Assembly: GCA_903813345.2 (NCBI GenBank)
Contig: CAIIXF020000001.1
Coordinates: 26,102,001 to 26,166,000 of the forward strand
Direction: 5' to 3'
Length of the DNA: 64,000 bases
DNA from: Owenia fusiformis
Taxonomy: Eukaryota
Shown here: in pieces, positions 3,239-62,745 of the stretch
Layout of the letters: every line of letters begins with the position of its first letter
Position numbering within the stretch: the first letter of the stretch is position 1
The notes under the pieces: model-generated
Told to the model about the DNA's origin: nothing
Database searches by the model: none
What the model saw: the letters and a program-made list of their open reading frames with translations, nothing else
Made by a program: the position numbers and the translations under genes

Positions 3239-4398
3239 AGCACCACCTTCCTGTTTGAGCAGTACATCAGTTTAATACTCAAGAATGTACAGTAGAAATA
3301 TTAGTAAGAATTATGAAATAATAAAAAGGTCGTAATAAAAAAGGCAGGGCATTTTTATCAGTACTTATTGAACGCCCTATAATATTTGGGACTTAATGGT
3401 CAAATATTGGCATAATTGATTATCACGTATATAACTTGTGAACGAATGTTTGGAAGTCACCATTAAACAATTTGCTAGATTTATGGTCACCATTTGTAAT
3501 GGATATAAAGAGAAAAGCTGCTGAGCTAAGTTGCTTCAATAAGTCCAAAAAGAACAAATTGTTATATGATATACAACACAAGGATTGATGTTTGATGGGA
3601 GACAATTATTAAAGATGTACAGGTGTGCACATTCATCAATTTTTCCAATCTAAAATAAATAGTCTTTAAAGTTCCTATGGGGATGCTAATGGGTTGAGTT
3701 GTTTAGAGCCTTAACAGCACACAAATAAAAAAATTAAGATATTTCTTAGAATAAACCCATTTATTTTATTAATTGCAAATATAGAAAATCTTTCAATGGT
3801 AGGATAAATCTATATTTACCATTATTTCACGTCTTCTTATAGTCATACATTAACAAAACTATTCTATACATATTTCTTATATCTATATTACAACATTTTT
3901 ATACAAAATATAATACCAAGTTGTAACTTAGTAACAACATCCAAGCTGAGCGTTTATGAATATGAACCTCCTAAATAAACAATTTGAAGGAAAAAAATCA
4001 TTAGGCAATTTGAAAAAAAGAATAGTGCAGTATATGTAAGATTACAGACATGACAGATGCATTGTATAGTTAATGACAAAAACTAATGATAATAAGTAAT
4101 GAAGTAAGGAACATAATTCTCTGATCTTGAGATCACCAGTGAAGATTTCTTAGATTTAAAAAACACTTTATCCATCATATTCAAGTGTAACAAACATTTA
4201 TCCTTAAAAAAACATGTCTCATGTAATGATAAAATGAGCAGGGTGATTGGCCAAAAACACATAAATATGACCAATTGGCCTACATGCTGACATAATCAGC
4301 CTTAGTCAGTCACTGAATATTGTCCATTAGATGATTACTAGTATGTCAGAGATACTACATACTATGAAGATCTTTCTGTATATGTTAAGCATTGTGAA

Positions 4399-4483
4399 TC
4401 AGTCCGTGTCTGTAGATCGATAATGGTCATCATCTATAGTAGAGAATATATGACCCTCACCACTCAGGAACTCAACAGAATCC
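4399..4483 (-). CDS. RPA2: RPA2 last coding exon (winged-helix C-terminus)
   Basis: [29 protein letters not shown] acceptor at 4484-4485. Confidence 0.95.
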
Positions 4484-7400
4484 CTGGAAATGTACAAGCA
4501 ACATTATACAATACTTGTAAGTTGCAACTCGTAATGTTATTCTTCGACAGACATTTTATACAATTTTTAAGGATAAATTCATTAACTGGGCAAACAATTA
4601 TCTTCTAGCTTTGACTTCCTACAGACTGACAGAGAGTGAGCTGTCCTTACCTAATAGCTTTTTCAGGTAGACCTCTTAGTTGTTGCATTATGTTTTGTAT
4701 GCTGATACCTGCCTCATCACTGGCTGACCCTCTTATAATCGTTAGTACCTGAAGTATAACATAACAATTGCTTATTACTGTTATGTATAGTGATGTAAAC
4801 CGTGTCTGCTTTTCAAGTTGTTTTGCAAGGAGAGGTAACTGACTAAATCTCTGCAAAAATTGAAGTTGTTTTAGCAAAATATGCACTGAACAAAATAGAA
4901 CAAAATTACAATGAGTTAAATTACATGTACCATGGAAATTTAAGTATACTAGTATTTAATTTCATGATTTTGGCAGATACAACTAGAAAACAGCAACTCC
5001 ACGGAATAGCAAATCCCATTGAACAAAACTTTTATTAGATACACAGTCATTATCCTCATTATCTCAGAAGAACTCAAGTTGATTGAGTCTCAACAAGTAG
5101 ACTCATGTGGGAGAGTATTGGTAGAATCCATTTTCAATAGTAAGAATGGGGATTTTAAAACAGGACATTAAACAGTTTAACCAGATTAACTAGGGCATTT
5201 TTGAAAATTTGGTTAGCTCTATATGACATTTTGAAAACATTGGGTACGGCTACAATTTAAGTTTGAGTGGTTTAAACTTTTTTGGGGGCTTTTAAAGAAT
5301 GATGAACATTTTTTTACCTGTTGTTGAACATTAGACATACTGTTGTCAGTCATGGCCCCTGCATATGTGTTTTTAGCTGGTGTAGCGTTTGTCTCATGGT
5401 GGCCATTTGTTTGGTTTGCAGACTGGATTATAAAACAGAAAATTCATCAATTGGAATTCAATTGAAGTTACAGTAATAATATCTAGGAGGTAAAGATACT
5501 TTTAATTGTTTTGATTGTCAGGTTACTGAGTTTAAAAAATCAACCAGAAGTCTTTGTTTTGAAATCACAATTGAGACTTTTACACAAATACTGAGCAGAA
5601 CATAAAACAAGAAAGACTGTTCATGTGATGAAGACCATTTATCATTTTTTTTAAATAAGTCATATACAGTTAAGAATAGGGTTGTGTCAACCTTACATAG
5701 GTACTCCCAATGCCTTTTACTTTACCCCATGGGTGAATGGATTTATTTATATTGTTGGGTTTTTCTAAGTCATGCTAGGTTTCAATTCTTACCTAAAGAT
5801 GGCAGCATAGCTGTCCATCAAGACTTAACAAAATCAGTGAAGCCAAAAGCCACAACTCTGTTCTTTTCACTCATCATATAGGCAACACTTAGTCATTTCT
5901 CATAACCAGACTAGCTGGACTCTGTTATTTTCACGAACCTGTATCTCAATACTTAAACATTTTACATCCAACCAAAGGCGCTGGACTCTGTCATTTTGCA
6001 GCAACAGTGGTTCATGACTTAGGCAATTTTATTCATTCATACAGTTGGACTTAAGCATTTTCAGTGACATTTCAGTAAGAACTTAGAATAATTTGGTCAT
6101 TAAGTTTCATTGGCACTTTGCCAAATTGGTCATTGGCAGGTTGCCAATCGTGGTTTGGCAACATGCCAATATTGGGACTATATAAGAGGCTTCGAAACCT
6201 CACCCTGGCAGTTACGAGTAGTTCTTTAGGAGTTATGATCTGCAGTTATGATCTGGAGTTATGATCTGGAGTTATGATCTGGAGTTACGATCCAGAGTTA
6301 CGATCCAGAGTTATGATCTGCAGTTATGATCTGGGAGTTATGATCTGGAGTTATGATCTGGAGTGACGATCCGGAGTTACGATTTGGGTCTCTTAGTCAG
6401 TACAGTAGCTCAGTAGTATATAACTTGTAAATAGATAGTGTAGTTTGACTCTTTATAATAAAGTATCGTATGTTACTCTGAACTCTGAAGTTTGTCGTAT
6501 CATATTGGCGTCATCGTTTCGTAGAGACCCAACACTGGTGAGCAGCGATGGGATATGAACTTATACACGCTTATAGCGCTACCAACAATTAAGAGACTTT
6601 AAGATGGCGCCAAGAAAATATAAAGATAAACCAGCTAAACGGAGACATGATCGTTACCAAAACTTGCAGAACATTTGCAGATTTGCACAACATTTATTCT
6701 CTCATTAGAGAGTGGTGGCAGCAAACTTTTTATATTATGATTAGTGACATTTAATTTTGGAATGCAGTATTGAACTTAGGATGTCAGCACGGGGTACCAT
6801 GATGTCACGTCGGGGTAAAATTCTCAACATGCAGGATCAGCTGTACTCAGCTTCACATTGTTTGAGGGACTTTGTTCATACTGAACTTTTGCGAAGAAAG
6901 CAGTGCCATTATGAAGCCATTTTGGGATGGGTCGCAGTTATACTCATTCTAATTACCTTGTTAATGGTTCATTTGTTTATTGATGTACAGGATCCCATAC
7001 CTGTCATCTTGGACAAATTCAGTCAGGTGTTATATTTGTGTTATTGGAGTATGTCTATGATGCGTCCGGACATACGTAGGATCAGAGAGACACTAGAGAT
7101 TCAGAGATCAGAGATTGATCGAATCTTCAGTTTTATATGCGGAGATCAGAGATTGATCGAAACTTCAGTTTTATATTTAGAGATCAAAGATTGATCGAAT
7201 CTTCAGTTTTATATGCAGAGATCAGATATTGATCGAAACTTCAGTTTTATATTCAGAGATCAGAGACTGACCAGTTCTTAATTCAGAGAGACATTTTCAT
7301 GGGATCCAGGATACTGCTAAAATGCCTTTTGACTATTATTTGGTGATCAAGACACAGTGTGAACTATAATACAATATCGAGAACTAATAAGACTGGTCGT

Positions 7401-10400
7401 TAGCCTACATTCAGCACTCAGTGACAGATCAACAAGACAGAGATATCCTTCATTGTAAAGTTGTGAAACCAGGCCAGTCTTCAGTACACATTGTACCAGC
7501 TAATTCACTTCCCATCATCAGGAGTCCAGTGCAGTGCAGATATCAAGATGATCAAAGGAGGAATTTTGATTTGTGAATTTGAAAACCTTATATTATTTTG
7601 GCTGTGTGTGGTTATTGAATGCCTACATCATTGTCATTGATTCAGTGTGTTGAACATGACAAATGGTCTTCCTTTTAACTTACTAAAGTTGAAAGAAACC
7701 ACAATATTAAAGATAAACATAGCATATAATATTATGTTATATGTCAGTGGACTGTGAAACTAAAAGGAAGTGTGTGGGTGAAAGATTGCCCAATATTATT
7801 GACTCATAACATGAATTATCTAGTTCTTTATCAGAATGTTATAGAAATATTTGCATTGCTGAATGATTTTGAAGAAGTGATCAGGTTCAATAAACATTGC
7901 ACTTGACACTGAACACTTTGATTTTCATGCCTTCATTGAAGTGCAACAGACTGTAATATTAAAACATTTAAAATAACTTTATGAACTTTTGAGGCTGATA
8001 GTGTTTTTAATTATTCTGAAATTAAGAGTGCTTTAAAAGTGGAACTTGCTTTTGAGTCTTCGTAACATTCTGATGGTTTTGATATGATTTGATACAAAGT
8101 TTCAGTCAGTTGAAAGTTTACTCATCAATTTAGTTAGGTAAAAAAATGTGGCATAACAGTTCTATTATTTGGTGATGTCATTTTTGTTCATAACAGGTTT
8201 GGTCTTCGACACAATTGTCTCATAATTGACCTTTGTTATTTTATCTTGGCTTAACAGTAATGGTTTCATTATATAGTTGATGAACATTGGCTACTCTTGT
8301 TTTTATATTTTTTTTGATTACGGTTTAAAAGGGGTTGTCAATATGCTGATATCATTTTAACAAGGTTAATTTGAAACTTGTTGTGACCAGGAGGTCACAA
8401 AGCTAGTGGGGAGTAGTGTTGGGTTTTTCTAAGTCATGCTAGGTTTCAATTCTTACCTAAAGATGGCAGCATAGCTGTCCATCAAGACTTAACAAAATCA
8501 GTGAAGCCAAAAGCCACAACTCTGTTCTTTTCACTCATCATATAGGCAACACTTAGTCATTTCTCATAACCAGACTAGCTGGACTCTGTTATTTTCACGA
8601 ACCTGTATCTCAATACTTAAACATTTTACATCCAACCAAAGGCGCTGGACTCTGTCATTTTGCAGCAACAGTGGTTCATGACTTAGGCAATTTTATTCAT
8701 TCATACAGTTGGACTTAAGCATTTTCAGTGACATTTCAGTAAGAACTTAGAATAATTTGGTCATTAAGTTTCATTGGCACTTTGCCAAATTGGTCATTGG
8801 CAGGTTGCCAATCGTGGTTTGGCAACATGCCAATATTGGGACTATATAAGAGGCTTCGAAACCTCACCCTGGCAGTTACGAGTAGTTCTTTAGGAGTTAT
8901 GATCTGCAGTTATGATCTGGAGTTATGATCTGGAGTTATGATCTGGAGTTACGATCCAGAGTTACGATCCAGAGTTACGATCCAGAGTTATGATCTGCAG
9001 TTATGATCTGGGAGTTATGATCTGGAGTTATGATCTGGAGTGACGATCCGGAGTTACGATTTGGGTCTCTTAGTCAGTACAGTAGCTCAGTAGTATATAA
9101 CTTGTAAATAGATAGTGTAGTTTGACTCTTTATAATAAAGTATCGTATGTTACTCTGAACTCTGAAGTTTGTCGTATCATATTGGCGTCATCGTTTCGTA
9201 GAGACCCAACAATATTTAGGCATAATCTTTGGAATCAACTTCCCCATTGAGGGACTGTAACTAAATAGTCCACTTTACTCATATTGTGACAGATTATGAA
9301 AACCCACATCTACAGTACTTAAGAAGTAGCCAATGTGTTACGCTACAGATGTACTTACTACAGGTTGTGTTAACTCTAAATGTACTTTGATAGTCTCCAG
9401 TATGTGAGAAGTGAGCTCATTCATGTCTGTGATTGGGAGCACCTTGAAGGCAGTGATGTTCTGCTTGCCTTGGAATGATCGCAGATTGCCATATACTCTG
9501 ACGTATGTGTTCTCCATCATGGGGCTCACTCTCTCCTCCTCTGGTACACTTTCCTGTAGAACAAGCAGTACAAATTAAAACAAGGCATTAACTTGCAAAA
9601 TGTCACCACCTGTCATTTGTTACAGATGCCGAATGCCGACAAACAACCAACAATGCCAAACACAGAAACAAAAAAGTTGGAGACTATGAAACTATGTCCC
9701 CAATTGTCATGGTGACATAAAAATGATTTAAACTGCAATTGCAATTTTGTTATAAACTAATAATTGTTTTAAAGTATCCCAAGGTAGAAGCTTAATTTGC
9801 AATATTGTAAATATGAGCTTTTTAAACCATACAAAGAGATAAACCAAAAGCTTCTTCTCATAAATAATAGCATTATATTTATAGACACAAATTTAATGTG
9901 TGGTTTTATTTCCCAGCCTGATAGGATGTGAGGGTTGCCTGAGTGTTACACTAAATTATATACATATATATACTGAAATCCCTTTTTTATTTCCAAACCA
10001 CCCATTGACCTTTATTAGCCACCAACTCAAGTGATAATCTACAGAATTTAGTACAAATCATATGAGACGGTGCTTTACTGTGTTACAAATTATCCAACAT
10101 GTTTTCATTATGAGTACATCTTTCAGCACATTCCCTCTGATCCAACCATACCACACCCAAAATTAATGACATACCATGGCAAGCCAAGGAGCAACTTACA
10201 TCATTATCTACAAACTGTTTGACTTCAATAATGGGACCAGTACCATCATCCAGCCCATAGTCTATCCTGGTTGGGGCAACACTCACAGACTTCACTAGCC
10301 CTACTATGGTTACCTAATATAACAGGTTAACAAAGAACTTGTATATAACAATGAACTAACATGCAAATAACAATCAACTAACTTCTTAATATAAAACAAT

Positions 10401-13400
10401 GATAATGTTTACTGTAAAACATGATCTTTCAGATTGGATTTCTATTATCTGGAAAAATGAAACAGAAGTCAGAGAAAGTACTTGATGAAAAGACATTGCA
10501 GAATGAAATTGACTTATCTATTGTGAGTGTAATTACTGTTCATAACATGAGATAAATACACCCATAGAATTAAGATAGAATATGTAGAATAAGATCATGT
10601 TTTACAGTTTACAAAAGCAGAGTTCATAAAACAGCATATGTGTATATATTCTGTAGTCTGAGTTGCCTCACTAATAGGTAAATAGGTGATACACATCAAA
10701 TCAGCACCAGTTAATGAGCACAGATGGGTGATCTCCCAAGCATGGAAGCAACCGAGGGGGGAGCAACAGCATATGTATGCCTGCTATTGTTAAACATTTG
10801 AAAATTAATTTGCACTCACTGCACACTCGGTTAGATATCAATATGCACCCAAACACGAAAGGTAAAGTTTGACCAGTTTCACAATGTCAAAGTTGATAAA
10901 ATGTCCTGGAAACGCTGCAGACTGTTTAATGAACTCATCAATGTAATATGAAACAAAGAACTATTCAATAATATCCTGCAATATAGAAGTCAATGTTATG
11001 TCAAAGGACTTTAATCATGGACATGTAATCCAACCTTCTGGAATTTTTTTCAAATATACTTGAATTGGGTCTTGAGACTCTCTGAAAAGAGAATTTGAAA
11101 CTTAGGAAAATAACTTTACTTAGCATAAAACTCAAAGTTGTTTGGTAAACATATCAGCACAAAAGTTACCGAAGCATAGTAGCATTGAAGAAAATATTGC
11201 AGGATAAATAACTAATTTAAGTGTGGTAACTATGGTAACCTACTCCATCCATCCACAATTTGCAATAAATATCACCGAATGTACTGTCATTGATAGTGTA
11301 TGAGATACTTGTGTTGTCTTGTTTCACTGATGTCACAAGACCAACTAAAGTCACCTAGCGTAATGATTAATACAAAATAATTCCTTTATTTATATCCTTA
11401 AATGAGCTAGAGAGAAAATACCCCAGAATTCATGAACCTAGAGGTATATCTTTATATGGAGAGGTTAATCGATGGATTCTGAGCTATTTCCTCCATTTTT
11501 GGTGAGCAGTTGAATTTTGAATTTGAATATTTTTAATGTTTAATGTCAGAATGTCAGTCTTCCACCTGCATTTAAGCTAGTGTACATCCTATTGAAAATT
11601 CTAATATTGACAATTCATAATTTGAAGTCTTGCAACAAGTCTCTGGACACTCAGCCCATCTTATTCCCCTTTTAGAGGTGATAGGTATGTGGCTAGGGTC
11701 ACATGGGGTTGAAGCAAGACTATTAGTTTGCATTCAATTGAGAACTTTAAAAAGCATAAATTGAAATATTTTTGATTGTTCGAGAAGATTCAACATAACA
11801 TTGAACCACTTGGCATTTTAGCTTGAAAATGATCTAAACGTGAACTCTGTTTCAAATTAACCCTACCTGATGTAATTCAAAGCCATCTGCTATAAACCTG
11901 TCACCATCATGGTTAGCTGACAGTACTTGCGCTATGGTACAGGGAATGATGTTGCTTGGACGCTAAAAGGTAAATATGTTCCATCAGAGAAGACATTAAA
12001 TGATTTTAAACACGATTGTTGTGATAAACACAGAAACATTTATGACATACTGTAGATACACTTAATTTGGCTACTATTTTAATTTGACTGATTGGCGGAT
12101 TGAAAAAAATCCACCAAATTAAAAATCGCCAATTTTCAGATTTATTTTGGAAAATCAGAATTTATAATTTTCAATTATTTCACTTGAGAATTTATAATTT
12201 TCAATTATTTCACTTGAGAATTTATAATTTTCAATTATTTCACTTGTGTAAGTATTCCTATTTGGATGTCAGTACTATACCAAGACCCTGGGACCAAGAC
12301 TGGAAATAGAACACATGAATCTAAAATGTTCTTTCCAGATCTATGATAAAACTTGAGCTCAGGCTTGACTCCACCAAATTAAATAGCCGCAAATATTTGA
12401 AATTGAGCAAATCTGTCAAATTAAGTAGCGTCAAATTAAGTGTATCTACAGTAACAGTGACCCGCTATGGCTCAGTGGCAGAGTCAAGGTTACCAATATC
12501 GCTTGGCCCCGGGTTCGATTCCTGGTTCAGACAAGTTTGTTTGTGCGTTATGTAAATCTGGGTGTTTGACTGAGTGGTTCACGACTCGTATAAAAGGCTG
12601 TGGTGTGTACCTCTATGTCTGTGTACCTGTGCACACAAAATAACACAGGGCTCCTCCAAGGAGGGGTTTCTGGCTCTATCTTGAAGTGTAAAATACGTAA
12701 AAATACGGAACATACCAATGAGGTATTGCTCGCCAAATATGGCGGTAACCAATATTCAATAATAATAATATACATTCATCATCCCATAACAATACATGTA
12801 GTTCAATAGTAGTATAAGCATTCAATGATATGATTGACCCATCTTGGACTTTCAAGGTATGACGTTTTCATCAAAAATACAACTCTTAAGATGTAACATT
12901 TGGAAACAATATGCAAATTTTAAAAATAGACAAATGCTAATGCCTTGTACAGGCTAGGCAAACAAGGATGCAACCCTGGTGATGAGATTGCAAATCAAGA
13001 ACATACATTGACGTTATCCTATCTGAATATACTCACAGCTCTTTTTTCTCCTCCCTGTGATTGTGGAGAACTGAAACCTCCCCCAGCTGGAGATGCAAAT
13101 CCACCTTGCTGGTCAAAGCCCCCATCTCCTAAAAATAAAGGGAGTAGTTCATTAATGCTCACCTTGTGTAAAAACTTTCAGGTCAGTGAAATTTATGGAA
13201 AATTCATCTACACATTTATACTATAAACCACCCTAAATATTATCGTGAGTTTAGTCAAATCTAGATCCAGTCTATAAAGATTACAGTGGGGGACAAAAAT
13301 AAAACTCAACGTTCACAAGTTGTCACAATGATCTAAATTCCAAGTTTCCAATCTAAATTCCAAGTCTCAAACTCTCCCAAGTGGTAGAAAAATAATTCCC

Positions 13401-15704
13401 ATTCACTAAAGTAGCACAATAAATGAATCCAAAGCTTCATACCTGCAAATAATGGATAAATCCCTACCAAATCGAGCAAATGTTTTCATGAATCGCCATG
13501 TTTGTTATCCAAGGATGGTTGACTCCCAGAATGCAACATCAGTTAACCGTATTTACTCGTGACAGTTTTCAAAATGCGGGACAGCATTTTGAAAGCTGGC
13601 ACGTGTCATGTTGCATTCTGGGAGCCAATCCTCCGTTCCGGCGCAATCGGGCGACAAAATCACTTCAACATTTGAAGAGTCAGCATTTACCATATTCTAT
13701 GGCCACTGAGTGTGGCCATACAATATAAATAAGACACTCTTTGTTGTTTTGAATTTGCCTTAAATTGCCGAGCTGTTTTATTTTTATTGATGTAAACATA
13801 ATAAACTCACCTGCATTGATCTTTACACGTAGTCCTATTTCATAAATTGGTCTACTTCGCAGGATATTTAATCACAAAATAAAACTGAAGGAAATTTTCA
13901 CAACAAGCGGCCATCTTGACTAAATCGCTATAGCGGAAAAAAGGCATGCTTTCAAAATGGAGAACGAGACGACGTCTATTTTAAATGAAAACGTTCAATA
14001 TCTCATCAATAAGATAAGCCGTTATCATTTCAATTCATGAAATATGAACAGAATGATTTTTAGAATATTACATAAATTCATTGAACGCCGGCTTAAGGAC
14101 AGGGTGCATGTTGGGAAATTTTCTGCATTCCTCAATTGAGTCACATGTTATTTTTCAAACAAGAATAACTCCTTCCCCACATGGTCTACATCTTCCAAGT
14201 TTGCACAAAGAGTGCACTTATGTGCCTAGAAAAGCCTTGTGAGAAGGTTTGTTTTGTAAAATGTATAAAAAATGAGTAAATTCAGTGAAAAAAAATTCTT
14301 AAAATTTTCTGATTTTTTTCATGTAGTCCACCCGTGTAGCTCAGCGGTAGCGCAGGTACCTCTTACGCAATAGGTCCCGGATTCGATCCCCAGTTCAGGC
14401 AAGACTAAATTTGCTTGTTTGCGTGAAGTACTTCAGGGTGTTTGACTGAGTGGTCCGCAACTCGTACAAAAGGCTGTGGTGGTGTGTATGTCTATGTATA
14501 AGTGCACATAAAAGAACACCGGGCTCCTTCAAGGAGGGGTTTCTGGGTCTATCTTCCAGGTTAATTACGTAAAATCCGACCGTTTATATACGGGATATAC
14601 CCAAGAGGTACAGTGGGGATCATAAAGAATTGCAAAAGCTATGAAAATTACATGTTGTCGCACATGTAATAAATTCTTACCTCAGTGTATTCAGTGCTCT
14701 ATTTTCTCCGTCTTAGTAAGTCCAAATATAGTGGAATTTGTGTCCCTAATGACAAATAAGAACTTCAAAAGTTGAATTGGATATTCACATGTTATGCCGA
14801 CTCTTCAAATGTTGAGGTGATTTTGTCGCCCGATTGCGCCGGAAACGGAGGATTGGCTCCCAGAATGCAACATGACACGTGCCAGCTTTCAAAATGCTGT
14901 TCCGCCATTTTGAAACCTGTCATGAGTAAATACGGTTAACTGATGTTGCATTCTGGGAGTCAACTGTCCTTGGATAACAAACATGGCGATTCATGAAAAC
15001 ATTCATTCGATTTGGTAGGAATTTTATCCATTATTTGCAGGTATGAAGCTTTGGATTCATTTATTATGCTACTTTAGTGAACGGGAATTATTTTTCTACC
15101 GCTTGGGAGAGTTTGAGACACGAAACTTGGAAATTAGCTCATTGTGACAACTTGTGAACGTTGAGTTTTATTTTTGTCCCCCACTGTATTGCTCACCTTC
15201 ATTGGTGGTAAACAAAATACAATACAATACAATACAATTGAGGAATGCAGAAAATTTCCCATCATGCACCCTGACCTTAAGATTTTACAATAGTTCACGG
15301 TGTTCTAGATGGAAACACTTCTAGCCAAGAATTGGCTAGAGACTCGAGTAAGTCGGCATAACATGTGAATATCTACTTCAACTTTTTAAGTTCTTATTTG
15401 TCATTATGGACACAAATTCCACTATATTTGGACTTAATAAGACGGAGAAAATAGAGCACTAAATACACTGAGGTAAGAATTTATTACATGTGCGACAGCA
15501 TGTGATTTTCATAGCTTTTGTATTTCTTTATGATCCCCACTGTAAAAATGTTAATGTCAATGTGGGCGATAATATGTGATGTTGTAAATTTCCATCAAAT
15601 GAAACGCTTCAATCGGCCAGTAAAGAATATAAATATTAGTAAAATACATTTTCTTTGAATCAGTATACCATTGCTTTATATTTACCTGCTTGATTGTTCC
15701 ACAT
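4399..15704 (-). CDS. RPA2: Replication protein A 32 kDa subunit (RPA2), 267 aa with exon 4b. Coding exons: 15686-15704, 13037-13128, 11867-11962, [11244-11354 or 10200-10313], 9359-9553, 5318-5422, 4651-4748, 4399-4483
   Basis: All exons are GT-AG flanked with compatible phases. Protein: MWNNQAG, G/S-rich tail with SP/SQ sites, OB fold ([42 protein letters not shown]), winged helix ending [25 protein letters not shown], as in metazoan RPA32. Confidence 0.96.
4651..4748 (-). CDS. RPA2: RPA2 exon 7
   Basis: [37 protein letters not shown] flanked. Confidence 0.92.
5318..5422 (-). CDS. RPA2: RPA2 exon 6 (linker)
   Basis: [35 protein letters not shown]; phase 0/0. Confidence 0.88.
5753..6534 (+). 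repeat. 5' LTR (782 bp)
   Basis: TATA (CTATATAAG), internal 13-14-bp GAGTTATGATCTG tandem repeats, AATAAA; direct repeat of 8417-9211. Confidence 0.93.
8417..9211 (+). repeat. 3' LTR (795 bp)
   Basis: Appears identical to the 5' LTR by eye, except for one extra 13-bp repeat unit. Confidence 0.93.
9359..9553 (-). CDS. RPA2: RPA2 exon 5 (OB-fold C-terminal half)
   Basis: [65 protein letters not shown]. Confidence 0.95.
10200..10313 (-). CDS. RPA2: RPA2 exon 4b
   Basis: [38 protein letters not shown]; 114 nt, TAG/GTAAGT, phase 0/0. Confidence 0.93.
11244..11354 (-). CDS. RPA2: RPA2 alternative exon 4a (duplicate of exon 4)
   Basis: [37 protein letters not shown]; 111 nt, TAG/GTAGGT, phase 0/0, no stops, homologous to exon 4b. 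Confidence 0.82.
11867..11962 (-). CDS. RPA2: RPA2 exon 3
   Basis: [32 protein letters not shown]. Confidence 0.93.
12050..12451. mobile_element. Tc1/mariner-type MITE
   Basis: TA-flanked TIRs CTGTAGATACACTTAATTT / AAATTAAGTGTATCTACAG; internal 30-bp repeat in about 3 copies. Confidence 0.75.
12459..12770 (+). mobile_element. tRNA-derived SINE (Nin/Deu-domain-like)
   Basis: A box TGGCTCAGTGG, B box GGTTCGATTCC, core AAAGGCTGTGG..GTGCAC..AAAA, (AAT)n tail; second copy at 14326. Confidence 0.85.
13037..13128 (-). CDS. RPA2: RPA2 exon 2
   Basis: (G)[30 protein letters not shown]; phase 1/0. Confidence 0.92.
14326..15238 (+). mobile_element. Second tRNA-derived SINE copy, interrupted by a MITE
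   Basis: A/B boxes (TAGCTCAGCGG, GATTCGATCCC), same core as the 12459 copy; resumes after 15186 and ends in a (CAATA)n tail. Confidence 0.82.
14611..15186. mobile_element. Intact Tc1/mariner-type MITE (576 bp)
   Basis: TA-CAGTGGGG...CCCCACTG-TA inside the SINE. Confidence 0.85.
15686..15704 (-). CDS. RPA2: RPA2 first coding exon
   Basis: ATG TGG AAC AAT CAA GCA G|GTAAAT (MWNNQA-G), matching the MWN start of RPA32. Confidence 0.9.
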
Positions 15705-15860
15705 TACTGTTGTTATGCTTTATTTGACAAACTTTTGTTGTTGAATGATTTTATGCGGCGCAATATTTTATTTTCGCGGTAATTCTTGCTGCCATCTGGT
15801 GAGGAAAAGTTTAAATAGATCAGATGTGAAAATATTTTGGTAAGTAAGCGGGTAAGTATT
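15705..15860. promoter_or_regulatory. RPA2: RPA2 promoter, possibly bidirectional
   Basis: E2F-like TTTTCGCGG at 15771 in a local CpG cluster; two plus-strand GTAAGT donors at 15840 and 15852. Confidence 0.5.
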
Positions 15861-16314
15861 AAGAGGCATTTGTCAACTCACTGTCAATGTCAGGTTTTTT
15901 GTTTGTAGACATGTACATTATTTAAAGATATTTCACAAGTTTCCACTTATACTTGTCATCTAATTACTCTAGGCATCAGATGCTGACTGTGCACTTTCCC
16001 TTGCAAAATTGGGAGAAAATGAAGGAGGGAAATCTATCCGATACCTATGTGGATTGAAGTGATTATTTTCTTATCTTTCAGAAAAGGAGGTTGTTCTCGG
16101 CTTGGGGTTCCTTTTATAATGAAGGGGGGAGGGAATTCAGGCCCGTCTAAGATTTCCCAAGCTGTGGGGGGTGCGACTTGCGGTATGGATGGATTGCACT
16201 GCTGACACATACACACTCACACTCATTCTTTGAGGCCTTACAAAATCCCCAAAATATTTGGGCCTTAGAATTTATTTCACACTCTCTCATTGGTACATTC
16301 TGAGCATATCATGA

Positions 16315-16813: not shown

Positions 16814-17542
16814 TCATTATCATATATATTTCGAAAGGGGGGGGGGGGGGGGCAGTTGCCCCCAACAACCTACCCGGTCCTATTACCATCTCTAATTGGC
16901 GCCTCGGTGGTAGAAAAATTGATGTTGCCATATATTTAAGTCAAAGTTTGTTTTTTTTAAAAACTACGGATCCATGTCTCGGTAGTATAACATATGAACT
17001 GTGACATATAAGAATTTAGAGCCTCTATCTACTAATATGACGGGCTGAGACCGAATAAATTGTAGTGGTATGGTTAACTGGCGCCCGTAGTCGTGGTTCA
17101 CAAAAATAGACTATCTCTCTTAATTTTATGAGAAATATCAATCACCCAAACCCCCCTGGCCAAAAATTCTTTCAAAATCATGCAGTTTTTCACCATTTTG
17201 AGCACTTCTCAAGTGATTTTAGCTATATTTGGGCCAAAATTGTCAAATGTGAACCCCCCCTGGAAATTTTTGAAAACTGAACCCCCCTTGGCAAATCCTG
17301 GCTACGGGCCTGGTTAAATCATCATTATTTTGATTATTGCAACTTTTAAAAGTTGTTTAATTCACTTTACTCACTTCCTCGAAAAATTGTCTGGCCTAAT
17401 AAGTCTAGGTTATTATTTTCCTATCCTTGAATCATCAAATATGTTCACGCATACGTATAACATGTACTATACAATCCATAGAGAAATTGAACATGGCATT
17501 TTGTTGCCCTTCGTTATAAGAAGCAATTCCCATCGTCGTGCC

Positions 17543-18103
17543 ACTTGGTAGTGGTAAATGTGGTTAATTGCCGCTTGGTAGTGGTAAATGTGGTTAATTG
17601 CCGCTTGGTAGTGGTAAATGTGGTTAATTGCCGCTTGGTAGTGGTAAATGTGGTTAATTGCCGCTTGGTAGTGGTAAATGTGGTTAATTGCCGCTTGGTA
17701 GTGGTAAATGTGGTTAATTGCCGCTTGGTAGTGGCAAATGTGGTTAATTGCCGCTTGGTAGTGGTAAATGTGGTTAATTGCCGCTTGGTAGTGGTAAATG
17801 TGGTTGATTGCCACTTGGTAGTGGTAAATGTGGTTAATTGGCGCTTGGTAGTGGTAAATGTGGTTAATTGGCGCTTGGTAGTGGTAAATGTGGTTAATTG
17901 GCGCTTGGTAGTGGTAAATGTGGTTAATTGGCGCTTGGTAGTGGTAAATGTGGTTAATTGCCGCTTGGTAGTGGTAAATGTGGTTAATTGCCGCATGGTA
18001 GTGGTAAATGTGGTTAATTGGTGCTTGGTAGTGGTAAATGTGGTTAATTGGCGCTTGTTAGTGGTAAATTGCCGCTTGGTAGTGGTAAATGTGGTTAATT
18101 GGC
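17543..18103 (+). repeat. 30-bp minisatellite (TTGGTAGTGGTAAATGTGGTTAATTGSCGC), about 19 units
   Basis: Direct inspection. Confidence 0.97.
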
Positions 18104-18999
18104 GGGGGGGGGGGTGTATAGAGATATTGTATATCGTATAAGAGGCTGAAAATTTATTGTATATTGTGTAAGAGGGGGCAAAATTTATCGTATATGGTAT
18201 AAGAGGTGTAAAAAATATCGTATATGGTATAATAGAAAATATATGGTATCTAGAATTAAAGAAGGCTAATTATGAAGAAATTGTACCCCAAAGTTCCCCA
18301 TTGTGCCATACTGTAACCGTGTTGGAAAAACATGTAAAAGTAGTCTCTCTAATTAGTTCCACATTCCAGGTCAATCAATACTGTTAGTTTAGAGAAAATC
18401 CTTCTCAAACTAAGAGTTTTGTGCCCTTTTCATTCAAATTTTCACAGGAGGTGTTAAATATAGTCTCAAATAAGAATCATGCCCGATGATCAGAAGAAAT
18501 GAATGGAGGGGGAGTAGATCTAGCTGATTTTCGGTAGAAAATTCAACAAATCTTGAAGATTTATTTTTATAAGAGAAAGTTTACAATTGAATGGCTAAAT
18601 GAATAGACGCAGTGGACGGGGGAATATGTTAGGTCTTCTTGGATTTTTTTTGAACTCTGGAGTTCTAAAATAAAAGATCTATTAAAAAAGTGCAGCGTCG
18701 CCAACGTGCAAATGCCAATTTTTTGCTATAAATCAACCAACAGGGGTCTACACGACCTGTAATAAATACTCGTAAGTGAAGTAATTATCACAAAACTATT
18801 GTCATCATTGGTTTTGTAAAACATGTTACCATACGTTATATAAAAAGTAATCGAAAGTTATTAAAATTGAACGGAGGGGGGAGTAATGTGTCTATAAGAC
18901 AAATGAAAACTTCCATTAACTCCACATGTCCCCATTTTTCACTTTTCAGAGTTGTAACATCAAGTTACTGCCCCGGCGAAAAAGCATGGAATAATTCCT

Positions 19000-47441: not shown

Positions 47442-49756
47442 ATTGGCGCTTGGTAGTGGTAAATGTGGTTAATTGCTGCTTGGTAGTGGTAAATGTGGTT
47501 AATTGGCGCTTGGTAGTGGTAAATGTGGTTAATTGGCGCTTGGTAGTGGTAAATGTGGTTAATTGGCACTTGGTAGTGGTAAATGTGGTTAATTACTGCT
47601 TGGTAGTGGTAAATGTGGTTATTTGGCGCTAGGTAGTGGTAAATGTGGTTAATTGGCGCTTGGTAGTGGTAAATGTTGTTAATTGCAGCTTGGTAGTGGT
47701 AAATGTGGTTAATTGCCGCTTGGTAGTGGTAAATGTGGTTAATTGGCGCTTGGTAGTGGTAAATGTGGTTAATTGGCGCTTGGTAGTGGTAAATGTGGTT
47801 AATTGGCGCTTGGTAGTGGTAAATGTGGTTAATTGCCGCTTGGTAGTGGTAAATGTGGTTAATTGCCGCTTGGTAGTGGTAAATGTGGTTAATTGCCGCT
47901 TGGTAGTGGTAAATGTGGTTAATTGCCGCTTGGTAGTGGTAAATGTGGTTAATTTGTGCTTGGTAGTGGTAAATGTGGTTAATTGGCGCTTTGTAGTGGT
48001 AAATGTGGTTAATTGCCGCTTGGTAGTGGTAAATGTGGTTAATTGACGCTTGTTAGTGGTAAATGTGGTTAATTGACGCTTGGTAGTGGTAAATGTGGTT
48101 AATTGCCGCTTGGTAGTGGTAAATGTGGTTAATTGCCGCTTGGTAGTGGTAAATGTGGTTAATTGGCGCTTGGTAGTGGTAAATGTGGTTAATTGGCGCT
48201 TGGTAGTGGTAAATGTGGTTAATTGGCGCTTGGTAGTGGTAAATGTGGTTAATTGCCGCTTGGTAGTGGTAAATGTGGTTAATTGCCGCTTGGTAGTGGT
48301 AAATATGGTTAATTGGCGCTTGGTAGTGGTAAATGTGGTTAATTGGTGCTTGGTAGTGGTAAATGTGGTTAATTGGTGCTTGGTAGTGGTAAATGTGGTT
48401 AATTGGCGCTTGGTAGTGGTAAATGTGGTTAATTGGCGCTTGGTAGTGGTAAATGTGGTTAATTGCCGCTTGGTAGTGGTAAATGTGGTTAAATGACGCT
48501 TGTTAGTGGTAAATGTGGTTAATTGACGCTTGGTAGTGGTAAATGTGGTTAATTGCCGCTTGGTAGTGGTAAATGTGGTTAATTGCCGCTTGGTAGTGGT
48601 AAATGTGGTTAATTGGCGCTTGGTAGTGGTAAATGTGGTTAATTGGCGCTTGGTAGTGGTAAATGTGGTTAATTGCCGCTTGGTAGTGGTAAATATGGTT
48701 AATTGGCGCTTGGTAGTGGTAAATGTGGTTAATTGGCGCTTGGTAGTGGTAAATGTGGTTAATTGGCGCTTGGTAGTGGTAAATGTGGTTAATTGCCGCT
48801 TGGTAGTGGTAAATGTGGTTAATTGCCGCTTGGTAGTGGTAAATGTGGTTAATTGCCGCTTGGTAGTGGTAAATGTGGTTAATTGCCGCTTGGTAGTGGT
48901 AATTGTGGTTAATTGCCGCTTGGTAGTGGTAAATGTGGTTAATTGCCGCTTGGTAGTGGTAAATGTGGTTAATTGCCGCTTGGTAGTGGTAAATGTGGTT
49001 AAATGACGCTTGTTAGTGGTAAATGTGGTTAATTGACGCTTGGTAGTGGTAAATGCGGTTAATTGCCGCTTGGTAGTGGTAAATGTGGTTAATTGCCGCT
49101 TGGTAGTGGTAAATGTGGTTAATTGGCGCTTGGTAGTGGTAAATGTGGTTAATTGGCGCTTGGTAGTGGTAAATGTGGTTAATTGGCGCTTGGTAGTGGT
49201 AAATGTGGTTAATTGGCGCTTGGTAGTGGTAAATGTGGTTAATTGACGCTTGGTAGTGGTAAATATGGTTAATTGGCGCTTGGTAGTGGTAAATGTGGTT
49301 AATTGGCGCTTGGTAGTGGTAAATGTGGTTAATTGGCGCTTGGTAGTGGTAAATGTGGTTAATTGGCGATTGGTAGTGGTAAATGTGGTTAATTGCCGCT
49401 TGGTAGTGGTAAATGTGGTTAATTGCCGCTTGGTAGTGGTAAATGTGGTTAATTGCCGCTTGGTAGTGGTAAATGTGGTTAATTGGCGCTTGGTAGTGGT
49501 AAATGTGGTTAATTGGTGCTTGGTAGTGGTAAATGTGGTTAATTGGCGCTTGGTAGTGGTAAATGTGGTTAATTGCCGCTTGGTAGTGGTAAATGTGGTT
49601 AATTGCCGCGTGGTAGTGGTAAATGTGGTTAATTGCCGCGTGGTAGTGGTAAATGTGGTTAATTGCCGCTTGGTAGTGGTAAATGTGGTTAATTGCAGCT
49701 TGGTAGTGGTAAATGTGGTTAATTGCCTGGTAGTGGTAAATGTGGTTAATTGGCGC
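47442..49756 (+). repeat. 30-bp minisatellite, about 77 units, same unit and orientation as 17543-18103
   Basis: Direct inspection. Confidence 0.97.
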
Positions 49757-49758
49757 CT

Positions 49759-49823
49759 AGGTTAGGGTTAAGTTAGGGTTAATTATGGTTAGGTTGAGGG
49801 AGGTGGAAAATGCTAGGGTTAGG
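49759..49823 (+). repeat. Short degenerate TTAGGG-like tract
   Basis: aggttagggttaagttagggttaattatggttagg...tagggttagg. Confidence 0.7.
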
Positions 49824-49850
49824 TAACATTATGCGACATAATAACAAAAA

Positions 49851-52150
49851 ATGGCTACATGTCTCATTTGCACTGGTGAGCTTGGGGAGGGACAAGTTAT
49901 GATTTGTAAGGCGTGCGTTGATGTAGTAAGTCTTCCTTTTCCTTCAAAATCTGATAACCAAACTAAATAAAGTATTGTTTATATGATATTTAAAAATCTA
50001 ATATACTTTTTATGTTAAAGCTTGGACTTATTCTTATTATGTATTTAAATAATTGTTGTTTTGATCCTTTCAGATTGAGGAAAAGCGTAAGGAAAAGATG
50101 AAACATAGTAATATTCTCTTATTAATTTATTTTTGTGTGGAAGAACTTTCTAAATGAATGGATTCTTGTTGTAAATTTCAAATATTTCAGTTAATGTAAT
50201 CTGTACATATTTTAGGACTTATGCTGAAGTGGTGTCTCCTCCAGCTATTGAACTCTGCGGGGATATCATTGCCTGTGTGCAGAAGTAAGTTTAATATTTA
50301 TGCTTCTGAATCAAATTCAATTTACTTAACCCCCTATACCTCGGTTTGAGGCCATTTAGTCATCCTCCTGTCAAAATACCATAATTTTTGCCTTCATATT
50401 AAAACAGCATTTTAGTAATTTCAGATCCGTGGGCAAGTCGTCTGAATCCTTCAGTATTGCACCTGTTTATGTTATGTTTTAATTTACAACCATTTAATAT
50501 CAGAAATCTTTCTGATATAAATGTGTTGACAAAATTGCAAACATCACAATGAAACTCCATTCTGTTTTTTAGAATTAAATACTCAATCCAATTACAGTAC
50601 ATTCTTTTTCTTTACTATATTTTTGAAAAAAATAACCACTTATATAAATTACACCACTGACTTCTATGTTCAAAACTATTTTGATGCATAATACAATTAG
50701 TATTTTGCAATATTGCCCTCATGCATAGCATTATTAAGAAAATTTTAAATTCTGTACTTAGGACGTCTGAGGAGATAGTCCAGGAGGTTGCAGAGGTGGC
50801 TGCAGAGAAGTGGGAGGATGGGAAGCCAGGGACCAGCCAAAGTCCCACTCATGGGTCCTTCAGGTATAAAAAGGTAATAATTAACTGTCAATAGAGAATT
50901 TATTGATATATATTGTTTTACAAATTTAAGCTTATAATATACTTATACAAGGGCCGATCAAAAAGTTCCTTACCATTATGACATATGTGAAGAGCCAATA
51001 TCTCTCGATAAATAATAAGAAATAAAATAAATAAAAATAACATCTAATAATATTTTGATGCATAATACAATTAGTATTTTGCAACATTGCCCCTAAGCAT
51101 AGTATTATTGACAAAATTTTAAATTCTGTACTTAGGACATCTGAGGAGATAGTCGATGAGGCTGCAGAGGAGGCTGCAGAAGAGGGAGGATGGGAGGCCA
51201 GGGACCAGCCAAAGTCCCACTCATGGGTCTTTTAGGTATAAGAAGGTGATAATTAACTGTCAATAGAGAATTTATCGATATATGTTGTCAATTAAATATC
51301 TATTTAAATTATAGAAGGAAAAGAAATCTACCTTAAGGTAGATGTTGTTCTGAAAGAAAGGCAGCAAAATGCAGTGTTCAAGACACGTAATTCAGTGTTG
51401 ACTGTGAGCTCGCAAGGTGTAGTCAAGTAAGTTTTAAGATAAACCAACAAGTATTTTTAGACAATTCTTTCATGGTCTTGTAGCCTAAGTAACCTTCATT
51501 TTTAAGCCTTTTTCCATTACTGAGAATAAGAAATCTTATTTTGTACTAAGGTAAAGTGATTTACCAATGTAACTATATTCATGAATCTTTTCGGCTTGAA
51601 AAGTGTGTCACAGATATAGAAAACAATGTATTTAAATACAACCTTGAAGACATTGAGTTTTCCCAACATCGAGTCCATAAGAAGTTGGTCTACAGGGTGG
51701 GCAAATAAATTGGAACATGGCTCCTGTTTTAATTGATGGAAATTGTGTTGAGACCATTTGAAGGTTACATATTGTATTGTATGTAAGATATTGTATTTTC
51801 AGCAGTGATGTCTCTACCTGAGAAAATTTGGAATTCTTTCATGAAATACATGTACGTTGTACTTTTTTATTGACCCATCCTGTATATATTAAACGAGAAA
51901 AAAAAATATTTGTGTAGCACCTGGTAATAGTTCAAAAATGAGGATTGAATACTCTATGGTTGTCCAATATGGATGCATGTATTCCTGCTTGTTTTATCAA
52001 CCCTTTTATTTTACAAATTCAACTTAAGAATTTACACATTTTTTAGATTGCTTGCCATGAAAGTAATGCATAGAGTGTATTGTTTTGATCTGGATTTACC
52101 AGCAGTTGAGGTTCTTAGTATTATAGAAAGTGTCGCTTTGAAGAAAAAAG
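49851..52150 (+). other. Exon series of an unidentified, probably TE-borne gene
   Basis: GT-AG flanked exon-like blocks: MATCLICTGELGEGQVMICKACVDV (CxxC..CxxC), TYAEVVSPP.., duplicated TSEEIV..GTSQSPTHG exons, ..AVFKTRNSVLTVS.. A complete frame was not resolved. Confidence 0.45.
51693..51882. mobile_element. Tc1/mariner-type MITE
   Basis: TA-CAGGGTGGG...CCCATCCTG-TA. Confidence 0.65.
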
Positions 52151-59954: not shown

Positions 59955-62745
59955 CGAGAATGGTAATAGTTGGGTTTTATACAAGACTAGAGAGAATGGT
60001 AATAGATGGGCTTGATACAAGACGAGAGAGAATGGTAATAGATGGGTTTGATGTAAGCCTAGAGAGAATGGTAATAGTTGGGTTTTACACAAGACGCGAG
60101 AGAATGGTAATAGATGGGTTTGATACAAGACGAGAGAGAATGGTAATAGATGGGTTTGATGTAAGACAAGAGAGAATGGTAATAGATGGGTTTGATGTAA
60201 GACTAGAGAGAATAGTAATAGATGGGTTTGATGTAAGACTAGAGAGAATGGTAATAGATGGGTTTGATGTAAGCTTAGACAGAATGGTAATAGATGGGTT
60301 TGATACAAGACGAGAGAGAATGGTAATAGATGGGTTTGATGTAAGACTAGAGAGAATGGTAATAGATGGGTTTGATGTAAGCTTAGACAGAATGGTAATA
60401 GATGGGTTTGATACAATATGATAGAGAATGGTAATAGATGGGTTTGATACAAGACCAGAGAGAATGGTAATAGATGGGTTTGATGTAAGACTAGAGAGAA
60501 TGGTAATAGATGGGTTTGATGTAAGCTTAGAGAGAATGGTAATAGATGGGTTTGATACAAGACGAGAGAGAATGGTAATAGATGGGTTTGATGTAAGGCT
60601 AGAGAGAATGGTAATAGATGGGTTTGATGTAAGACTAGAGAGAATGGTAATAGATGGGTTTTATGTAAGCCTAGAGAGAATGGTCATAGATGGGTTTGAT
60701 GTAAGACTAGAGAGAATGGTAATAGATGGGTTTGATGTAAGCTTAGACAGAATGGTAATAGATGGGTTTGATACAATATGATAGAGAATGGTAATAGATG
60801 GGTTTGATACAAGACCAGAGAGAATGGTAATAGATGGGTTTGATGTAAGACTAGAGAGAATGGTAATAGATGGGTTTGATGTAAGCCTAATGGTAATAGA
60901 TGGGTTTGATACAAGACGAGAGAGAGAATGGTAATAGATAGGTTTGATGTAAGACTAGAGAGAATGGTAATAGATGGGTTTGATGTAAGCTTAGACAGAA
61001 TGGTAATAGATGGGTTTGATACAATATGATAGAGAATGGTAATAGATGGGTTTGATACAAGACCAGAGAGAATGGTAATAGATGGGTTTGATGTAAGACT
61101 AGAGAGAATGGTAATAGATGGGTTTGATGTAAGCCTAATGGTAATAGATGGGTTTGATACAAGACGAGAGAGAGAATGGTAATAGATGGGTTTTATGTAA
61201 GCCTAGAGAGAATGGTAATAGATGGGTTTGATACAAGACGAGAGAGAATGGTCATAGATGGGTTTGATGTAAGACTAGAGAGAATGGTAATAGATGGGTT
61301 TGATGTAAGGCTAGAGAGAATGGTAATAGATGGGTTTTATGTAAGCCTAGAGAGAATGGTAATAGATGGGTTTGATACAAGACGAGAAAGAATGGTAATA
61401 GATGGGTTTGATGTAAGACTAGAGAGAATGGTAATAGATGGGTTTGATACAATATGATAGAGAATGGTAATAGATGGGTTTGATACAAGACCAGAGAGAA
61501 TGGTAATAGATGGGTTTGATGTAAGACTAGAGAGAATGGTCATAGATGGGTTTGATGTAAGACTAGAGAGAATGGTAATAGATGGGTTTGATGTAAGGCT
61601 AGAGAGAATGGTAATAGATGGGTTTTATGTAAGCCTAGAGAGAATGGTAATAGATGGGTTTGATACAAGACGAGAGAGAATGGTAATAGATGGGTTTGAT
61701 GTAAGACTAGAGAGAATGGTAATAGATGGGTTTGATGTAAGCTTAGAGAGAATGGTAATAGATGGGTTTGATACAAGATGAGAGAGAATGGTAATAGATG
61801 GGTTTGATGTAAGACTAGAGAGAATGGTAATAGATGGGTTTGATACAAGACGAGAGAGAATGGTCATAGATGGGTTTGATGTAAGACTAGAGAGAATGGT
61901 AATAGATGGGTTTGATGTAAGGCTAGAGAGAATGGTAATAGATGGGTTTTATGTAAGCCTAGAGAGAATGGTAATAGATGGGTTTGATACAAGACGAGAG
62001 AGAATGGTAATAGATGGGTTTGATACAAGACGAGAGAGAATGGTCATAGATGGGTTTGATGTAAGACTAGAGAGAATGGTAATAGATGGGTTTGATGTAA
62101 GGCTAGAGAGAATGGTAATAGATGGGTTTTATGTAAGCCTAGAGAGAATGGTAATAGATGGGTTTGATACAAGACGAGAGAGAATGGTAATAGATGGGTT
62201 TGATGTAAGACTAGAGAGAATGGTAATAGATGGGTTTGATGTAAGCTTAGAGAGAATGGTAATAGATGGGTTTGATACAAGATGAGAGAGAATGGTAATA
62301 GATGGGTTTTATGTAAGCCTAGAGAGAATGGTAATAGATGGGTTTGATACAAGACGAGAGAGAATGGTCATAGATGGGTTTGATGTAAGACTAGAGAGAA
62401 TGGTAATAGATGGGTTTGATGTAAGCTTAGAGAGAATGGTAATAGATGGGTTTGATACAAGATGAGAGAGAATGGTAATAGATGGGTTTGATGTAAGACT
62501 AGAGAGAATGGTAATAGATGGGTTTGATGTAAGACAAGAGAGAATGGTAATAGATGGGTTTGATGTAAGACTAGAGAGAATAGTAATAGATGGGTTTGAT
62601 GTAAGACTAGAGAGAATGGTAATAGATGGGTTTGATGTAAGCTTAGACAGAATGGTAATAGATGGGTTTGATACAAGATGAGAGAGAATGGTAATAGATG
62701 GGTTTGATACAAGACGAGAGAGAATGGTAATAGATGGGTTTGATA
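59955..62745 (+). repeat. 36-bp minisatellite (AGAGAATGGTAATAGATGGGTTTGATGTAAGACTAG), about 77 units
   Basis: Direct inspection; several recurring unit variants. Confidence 0.97.

Follow-up and report, generated by a model that had tools for sequence, protein, structure and literature searches.

Replication protein A (RPA) binds single-stranded DNA in all eukaryotes, and where cells have a second version of the complex, the known route is a separate paralogous gene: mammals form an alternative RPA with a paralogous 32-kDa subunit, RPA4, and plants and nematodes carry several RPA2 genes. A 64,000-nucleotide stretch of the Owenia fusiformis genome (assembly GCA_903813345.2, contig CAIIXF020000001.1, positions 26,102,001 to 26,166,000 of the forward strand), here called the window, raises the question of whether a second form might be made by splicing instead. 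Its minus strand carries RPA2, the gene for the middle RPA subunit RPA32, and this gene is host to two tandem homologous copies of one exon, designated 4a and 4b. We describe the two copies, the sequence constraint on 4a and the RNA evidence on their use, and we weigh the readings under which 4a would be used conditionally, retired from use, included beside 4b, or never functional at all. Positions are those of the window throughout.

Two homologous copies of exon 4 in RPA2

The identity of the locus was established from its annotated product. Exon 5, used as a query, retrieved P0003, a protein of 267 residues recorded as "unnamed protein product [Owenia fusiformis]", which is 100% identical across that exon. 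Residues 1-266 of P0003 match residues 1-269 of human RPA32 (PDB chain 2pi2_A) over the full length (E = 2.8e-56), and residues 169-259 contain the C-terminal winged-helix domain RPA_C (Pfam PF08784; E = 7.7e-19, 68.8 bits vs. a cutoff of 22.6). The locus is thus RPA32/RPA2, the middle subunit of replication protein A. P0003 contains 4b and lacks 4a, and its sequence cluster has a single member. When P0003 was compared with the whole 64-kb window by tblastn, eight coding exons were placed from ~15704 down to 4399 (Table 1), and the sole extra paralogous match was 4a (E = 0.017). As no other paralogous match is present in the window, the tandem duplication involves one exon only, as opposed to a larger part of the gene.

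Reverse-complement translation of 11244-11354 and 10200-10313 gives peptides of 37 residues (4a) and 38 residues (4b), which reproduce exactly those given in a preliminary description of this DNA. Both exons are open and in phase 0/0, and on the minus strand each is flanked by an upstream AG and a downstream GT, located at homologous boundaries. The peptides align without gaps at 16 of 36 identical positions (E = 1e-7, BLASTP, single comparison). A gapped alternative, with one codon inserted and one deleted in the b2-b3 region, was rejected, as HMMER and a global BLOSUM62 alignment both favour the ungapped version. On simple measures, 4a has splice signals at least as strong as those of the constitutive exons: 13 of the 20 upstream positions are pyrimidines, compared with 11-14 of 20, and the donor reads GTAGGT where that of exon 3 reads GTAGGG.

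Both exons align to the same segment of human RPA32, as had been proposed, the match of 4a being weak. In comparisons with PDB chains, 4b aligns to residues 74-111 of 2pi2_A with E values of 7e-5 to 2e-4, and the best matches of 4a are RPA32 chains at the same residues, with E values of 0.5-0.8. On a hidden Markov model (HMM) profile of the family, built from 76 unique exon-4 segments of 120 RPA2 homologues, 4a scores 39.1 bits and 4b 73.5 bits. By itself, 4a also gives a sub-threshold match to the Pfam OB-fold family PF01336 (E = 3.6e-4, 20.8 bits vs. a cutoff of 27). Six of nine invariant or near-invariant positions of the family are retained in 4a (G74, T84, Y88, D92, T94 and D105, in P0003 numbering). 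Human W107 aligns with W in 4a and with F in 4b, a difference pointed out earlier from the sequence and present as such in the alignments to RPA32 chains.

Long-term constraint on exon 4a

The preliminary description had seen strongly diverged DNA with a conserved protein pattern, and had taken this to suggest selection on 4a; on closer analysis both parts of that claim hold. The two exons are identical at 56 of 108 nucleotides (52%), distributed over the three codon positions as 21/36, 23/36 and 12/36. First and second positions together are identical at 44 of 72 sites, and third positions are at a random level of identity, that is, saturated. Nei-Gojobori proportions of synonymous and nonsynonymous differences are 0.74 (pS, effectively saturated) and 0.40 (pN). 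The raw pN/pS ratio is 0.54 (bootstrap range 0.34-0.83), and this range, taken alone, is compatible with one neutral lineage.

Neutral evolution was therefore simulated directly. Both lineages started at 4b, which served as a proxy for the ancestor; one drifted with the base composition of the introns and the other was constrained at an omega of 0.15. Success was scored when a third-position identity of 12/36 or less, a profile score of at least 39.1 bits and an open frame occurred jointly. The pattern expected of a neutral, never-used pseudo-exon was not found: joint success was 0/1500 at each of five divergences (d = 0.2, 0.3, 0.4, 0.5 and 0.6), and the product of the marginals was at most 1.5e-5. 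The simulation ignores indels and splice-site loss and is therefore lenient to the null. The use of 4b as ancestor is a simplification, and with a more consensus-like ancestor the marginal for the profile score would be somewhat higher.

These results bear most directly on the idea that 4a was never functional and is a neutral leftover of the duplication, open and similar to 4b by chance. Such an origin would fit an exon that lacks annotation and shows no expression in these data, and unannotated or unexpressed duplicate exons within introns are a category described in the available text of Ivanov and Pervouchine (2022, PMC9013439). It is at odds with the failure of every simulation of neutrality since duplication, even before indels and the need to keep two splice signals intact are counted, and with third positions that are saturated where first and second positions are not. 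We consider it very improbable. The sequence pattern instead indicates a very old duplication, after which 4a was kept as RPA2-like coding sequence over most of its history. This signature reports the past of 4a; constraint in the present day lies beyond the reach of the simulation test.

The exon-4 segment in the OB fold and a proposed exchange of strands

To place the segment in the protein, an AlphaFold2 model of P0003 (the 4b form) was made from a 40-sequence alignment. Its predicted local distance difference test score (pLDDT) averages 79.7, and block values are 85-98 between residues 41 and 170. The model contains a five-stranded OB barrel (residues 69-81, 85-91, 98-103, 124-134 and 137-147) followed by a long helix (151-169). 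Residues 70-107, encoded by 4b, correspond to OB strands b1-b3, three of the five barrel strands, in agreement with the earlier statement that the segment forms core strands of DBD-D. Judging from the model, it is reasonable to suppose that a protein carrying both copies, or neither, would have a non-working OB fold. If two sets of b1-b3 or none would break the fold, substitution of one copy for the other would be the only coding use of 4a that selection could preserve.

Our proposal is as follows. Exon 4 of RPA2 was duplicated in tandem long ago, with both copies encoding b1-b3 of RPA32 DBD-D, and only one copy would enter any one protein, as both specify the same OB strands. Exon 4b is the default and 4a would be skipped by default, replacing 4b only in a cell type, stage or condition absent from the RNA examined. 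Inclusion of 4a would then yield an RPA32 in which the b1-b3 surface is altered and W replaces F at the position of human W107. That 4a is a live, conditionally used substitution (mutually exclusive) exon has, in our estimate, a chance approaching but not reaching even. Three elements of this proposal are what we infer: present-day use of 4a, exclusion of 4b by 4a, and a functional difference between the two forms. The broader suggestion, that Owenia and perhaps other early-branching annelids make an alternative RPA by splicing in 4a for 4b in a restricted context such as the germline, early cleavage or the damage response, is put forward tentatively, as something that may well be wrong. A germline, meiotic or telomeric role for the 4a form, as had been raised in the preliminary description, is pure speculation.

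Exon 4b is the default in the RNA examined

A number of results weigh against the use of 4a as a substitution exon today, and they are gathered in this and the following two sections. RNA sequencing (RNA-seq) data comprised three raw runs of one study (X17, X18 and X19) and a contig set (X9), aligned to positions 9250-13300. For each raw run 1.66-1.92 billion letters were read, corresponding to ~6-12% of the run, with the likeness threshold set at 92 and the reporting share at 1%, and the joints considered are the best 15 of 24.

RNA joints confirm the splice boundaries of exon 3, 4b and exon 5. The joint of exon 5 to 4b (9552/10199) was found in 28, 16 and 31 reads of X17, X18 and X19, respectively (75 in total), the joint of 4b to exon 3 (10310/11864) in 9, 10 and 14 reads (33 in total), and the main form of the joint of exon 3 to exon 2 (11962/13037) in 19, 5 and 21 reads (45 in total). 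A fourth joint connects exon 3 directly to exon 5 (9553/11867; 2, 8 and 0 reads, 10 in total), skipping both 4a and 4b. Exon 4a occurs in none of the best 15 of 24 joints across the three runs and X9. The preliminary description had inferred mutually exclusive splicing and had named a lack of junction reads with 4a as refuting it; in these samples the listed junctions use 4b (33 and 75 reads) or skip both copies (10 reads), and none of them uses 4a. For these samples this is the refuting outcome, and mutually exclusive splicing is not borne out as a current practice.

Read depth is in accord with the joints. In two bins over 4a the depth was 0.29, 1.36 and 0, and 2.26, 1.24 and 0.67, in X17, X18 and X19, respectively, as compared with 14-29 in the bins of 4b and exon 3 and 1-5 in adjacent intron. 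Coverage of 4a in the three runs is intron background. A 959-nt contig of X9 joins exons 2, 3, 4b and 5 contiguously, and the depth of X9 over 4a is zero. From the listed exon-3 donor reads (0 of 43 to 4a), inclusion of 4a is below ~7% in these samples, and coverage points to a value below ~4%. The sole protein on record for the gene likewise has 4b. Exon 4b is the default exon, present in essentially all of the mRNA sampled.

The reads across the exon 3-5 joint have four distinct start points. They are 151 nt long with 28-46 nt on the shorter side, so that no 111-nt exon can be hidden inside the joint. The product would be an in-frame RPA32 without OB strands b1-b3, and the joint is probably splicing noise. 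A minor variant of the exon 2-3 joint (11962/13038; 7 reads in X17 and 1 in X18) carries one extra T, so that exon 2 ends in one different letter; the simplest reading is an allelic difference among the animals sequenced.

The RNA data also speak for a retired alternative exon, one that was long in use, lost that use recently and now persists as a silent pseudo-exon that is still intact. With no listed 4a joint, intron-level depth, a contig without 4a and a protein record with 4b alone, silence is what the available data display. The peptide also has marks that such a history might leave: the invariant D91 is replaced by N, the near-invariant G95 by F and the near-invariant V100 by C, and 4a lies 34 bits below 4b on the family profile. 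In the simulations, moreover, 27% of copies still reached 39.1 bits and 58% were stop-free after a neutral phase of d = 0.2, so that a short neutral phase is indistinguishable from a live, diverged exon. What tells for the other side is the brevity of the interval required, as a dead 111-nt exon would be expected to stay open, unshifted and splice-intact only briefly in comparison with the long period over which 4a was kept, which favours a living exon a priori, and the RNA sample consists of three runs of one study and one contig set. A 4a isoform restricted to a certain tissue or stage, beyond the samples examined, is plausible. We regard retirement as a serious possibility, of rather less than even probability.

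The layout of the gene and the choice between the copies

Mutually exclusive exons are usually kept apart by some feature of the gene, and here the layout enforces no exclusivity. The intron between 4a and 4b is 930 nt, long enough to be spliced, which excludes a steric mechanism. All splice sites are of the GT-AG type, with no U2/U12 mismatch, and transcripts with both copies (+111 nt) or with neither (-114 nt) remain in frame. Base-pairing of the docking/selector kind in the flanking introns, which the preliminary description had advised looking for, was assessed by folding whole-intron duplexes and comparing them with dinucleotide shuffles, a crude test in which no pairing stood out: the inter-intron duplex energies lay within the shuffled controls, being matched or undercut by 28/40, 16/40 and 5/40 shuffles. 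The three inverted repeats that were found lie within single introns, and none bridges different introns. If 4a is used, the decision between the copies has to come from trans-acting factors or from undetected features.

The same layout invites another explanation, that 4a enters transcripts beside 4b or serves as a regulatory decoy or poison exon, giving a non-functional in-frame product or tuning RPA2 output. Nothing structural prevents joint inclusion, low-level aberrant splicing does occur at the locus (the 10 reads of the exon 3-5 joint), and an exon of 111 nt in phase 0/0 keeps the frame, so that a transcript containing it would escape nonsense-mediated decay. Neither a 4a-4b nor a 3-4a joint is found among the best 15 of 24, however, and the constraint on 4a is of the coding type (first and second positions kept, third positions saturated, family residues retained), which is unexpected of an exon with a junk product. 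To judge from the model, two sets of b1-b3 strands should also fail to fold into a single OB barrel. This explanation appears unlikely.

Distribution of the duplication among homologues

The proposed exchange of 4a for 4b receives no support from the related proteins that were searched. The nearest RPA2 homologues are ~52-55% identical and include molluscs. A second or alternative exon 4 was found in 0 of 121 RPA2 homologues, a set that contains no close relative; none of the 121 is closer to 4a than to 4b, and the ten best matches of 4a all fall on the canonical segment. As isoforms could be collapsed by clustering at 90% identity, 44 proteins from ten clusters of molluscs and echinoderms were inspected individually. 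The segment is carried by 38 of them, once each and always of the 4b type, and the remaining 6 are fragments without the exon-4 segment.

Larger collections gave the same outcome. A word search of a 5.8-billion-cluster library with the 45-residue open frame that holds 4a produced three candidates, of which none scored, and an exhaustive phmmer search of 4a against 1.84 billion representatives found no 4a-like protein. Its lone match (E = 7.6e-4) is a repeat protein with no likeness to RPA2 and was set aside as a chance hit. As far as the mollusc, echinoderm and other homologues reach, the duplication looks specific to the Owenia lineage.

Relation to known systems

The arrangement resembles the tandem-duplicated substitution exons of animals (PMC9741552, PMC8373072, PMC5740500, PMC9013439), in that adjacent homologous exons of near-equal length (111 and 114 nt) share phase and AG/GT signals, encode the same structural element of one domain, and combine old divergence with a protein pattern that is kept. 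It departs from these systems in the trait that defines them, the presence of each exon in mature mRNA but never of both, as only 4b is seen here. The usual devices for exclusivity, namely a short intron, incompatible splice sites, frame-dependent decay and docking/selector pairing, are none of them evident in the Owenia gene.

A second comparison is with the unexpressed intronic duplicates surveyed in PMC9013439. According to the available text, that survey proceeded by nucleotide identity, with a main cutoff of 80% and no pair below 57%. The Owenia pair shares with the category described there an exon-like homologue in a neighbouring intron that is absent from the annotation and in need of RNA-seq support. 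It differs in having 52% DNA identity, in being recognizable mainly as protein and in showing measurable coding constraint. A term search of the available text of PMC9741552 found neither RPA2 nor RPA named. No report of tandem exon duplication or of mutually exclusive exons in RPA2 was found in a literature search conducted mostly by title and abstract, with supplementary tables outside its scope, and no paper on alternative splicing of RPA2 in Owenia fusiformis appeared by title among the matches listed.

The functional parallel, if 4a is used, would be with RPA4-type alternative RPA, as the cell would again have two middle subunits with different OB folds in DBD-D. RPA4-type systems are separate genes that differ along the whole protein, whereas the predicted change in Owenia would be a splicing swap of 37-38 residues (b1-b3). 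Should the exchange prove real, it would constitute a splicing-based counterpart of RPA4-type alternative RPA and would add a core replication gene to those diversified by tandem exon duplication. A swap of b1-b3 would also offer a compact natural experiment on DBD-D, bearing on its contact with single-stranded DNA or on its packing against RPA14 and RPA70. As it stands, the locus is a clean case of an unannotated duplicate exon that its sequence marks as kept by selection and that the available RNA marks as unused.

Gene structure, repeats and other features of the window

The exons of RPA2 and the intervals around 4a are collected in Table 1.

Table 1. Exons of RPA2 and the intervals flanking exon 4a, in order of transcription, with the evidence for each
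Feature	Positions	Strand	Evidence
Exon 1, coding part (start codon)	15684..15704	-	tblastn of P0003 residues 1-7; lower boundary approximate
Exon 2, Gly/Ser-rich N-terminal region	13037..13128	-	joint 11962/13037 (45 reads), X9 contig, tblastn; upper boundary from AG in sequence
Exon 3, 96 nt, 32 codons	11867..11962	-	RNA joints, translation, tblastn
Interval from exon 3 to 4a, 512 nt	11355..11866	-	first part of the removed intron 10314-11866 (joint 10310/11864, cut +3); low pre-mRNA-like depth of 1-5
Exon 4a, 111 nt, 37 codons, duplicate of exon 4	11244..11354	-	open, phase 0/0, AG/GT; boundaries from sequence alone
Intron between 4a and 4b, 930 nt	10314..11243	-	sequence; two imperfect internal inverted repeats
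Exon 4b, 114 nt, 38 codons, P0003 residues 70-107	10200..10313	-	joints 9552/10199 (75 reads) and 10310/11864 (33 reads), X9 contig
Exon 5, 195 nt, 65 codons, OB strands b4-b5 and start of C-terminal helix	9359..9553	-	joint 9552/10199, X9 contig piece 9359-9552, translation, P0003
Exon 6, linker region	5318..5422	-	boundaries from sequence and P0003
Exon 7, start of C-terminal winged-helix domain	4651..4748	-	boundaries from sequence and P0003
Exon 8, coding part with stop codon, end of winged helix	4399..4483	-	open frames, tblastn, sequence

Several introns of the gene contain repeats. The intron separating 4b from exon 5 has a segment of ~35-50 nt (at 9578-9630) with an RNA depth of ~1000-1275 per run, as compared with 20-40 in the RPA2 exons. 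Of all reads aligned over 9250-13300, about 93% continue into unlike sequence, and loose ends pile up on both sides of this segment, which indicates that it is a member of an abundant, strand-biased transcribed repeat family located elsewhere in the genome. Rfam gave no match at 9578-9630. Intron 5 holds two direct copies of a ~780-bp element (5797-6560 and 8461-9240) with identical stop-to-stop frames, each including 12-13 copies of a 13-nt minisatellite; the pair is probably a transposable element that was inserted twice or duplicated.

Intron 2 contains a perfect 22-nt inverted repeat pair (12048-12453) around 362 nt that include a 30-nt unit repeated three times in tandem, an arrangement resembling a miniature inverted-repeat transposable element. 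Next to it, a repeat at 12460-12780 is transcribed on both strands at a depth of 50-140 and has many variant positions. ARAGORN found no transfer RNA in 9000-16000, the intron 2 repeat included. Intron 1 has two opposite copies of one element (13492-13730 on the plus strand and 14785-14990 on the minus strand) with near-identical frames. Rfam over 4000-16000 returned only two sub-threshold microRNA-like matches, both at a hairpin-like segment (13513-13634) far from the exons, with scores of 29 bits for bantam (gathering threshold 61) and 27.5 bits for MIR160 (48).

Outside RPA2, a long minisatellite at 17467-18269 is open on both strands, with frames of 196-251 codons that consist of a repeated short unit, and by present evidence it is not a gene. 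At 179-373, the minus strand has a Met-starting open frame that is coiled-coil-like and rich in Glu, Leu and Gln; from its sequence, it may be the first exon of a neighbouring gene downstream of RPA2. GC skew is strong at 48001-50000 (0.60) and 60001-62000 (0.74), which suggests G-rich simple repeats on the plus strand in these stretches.

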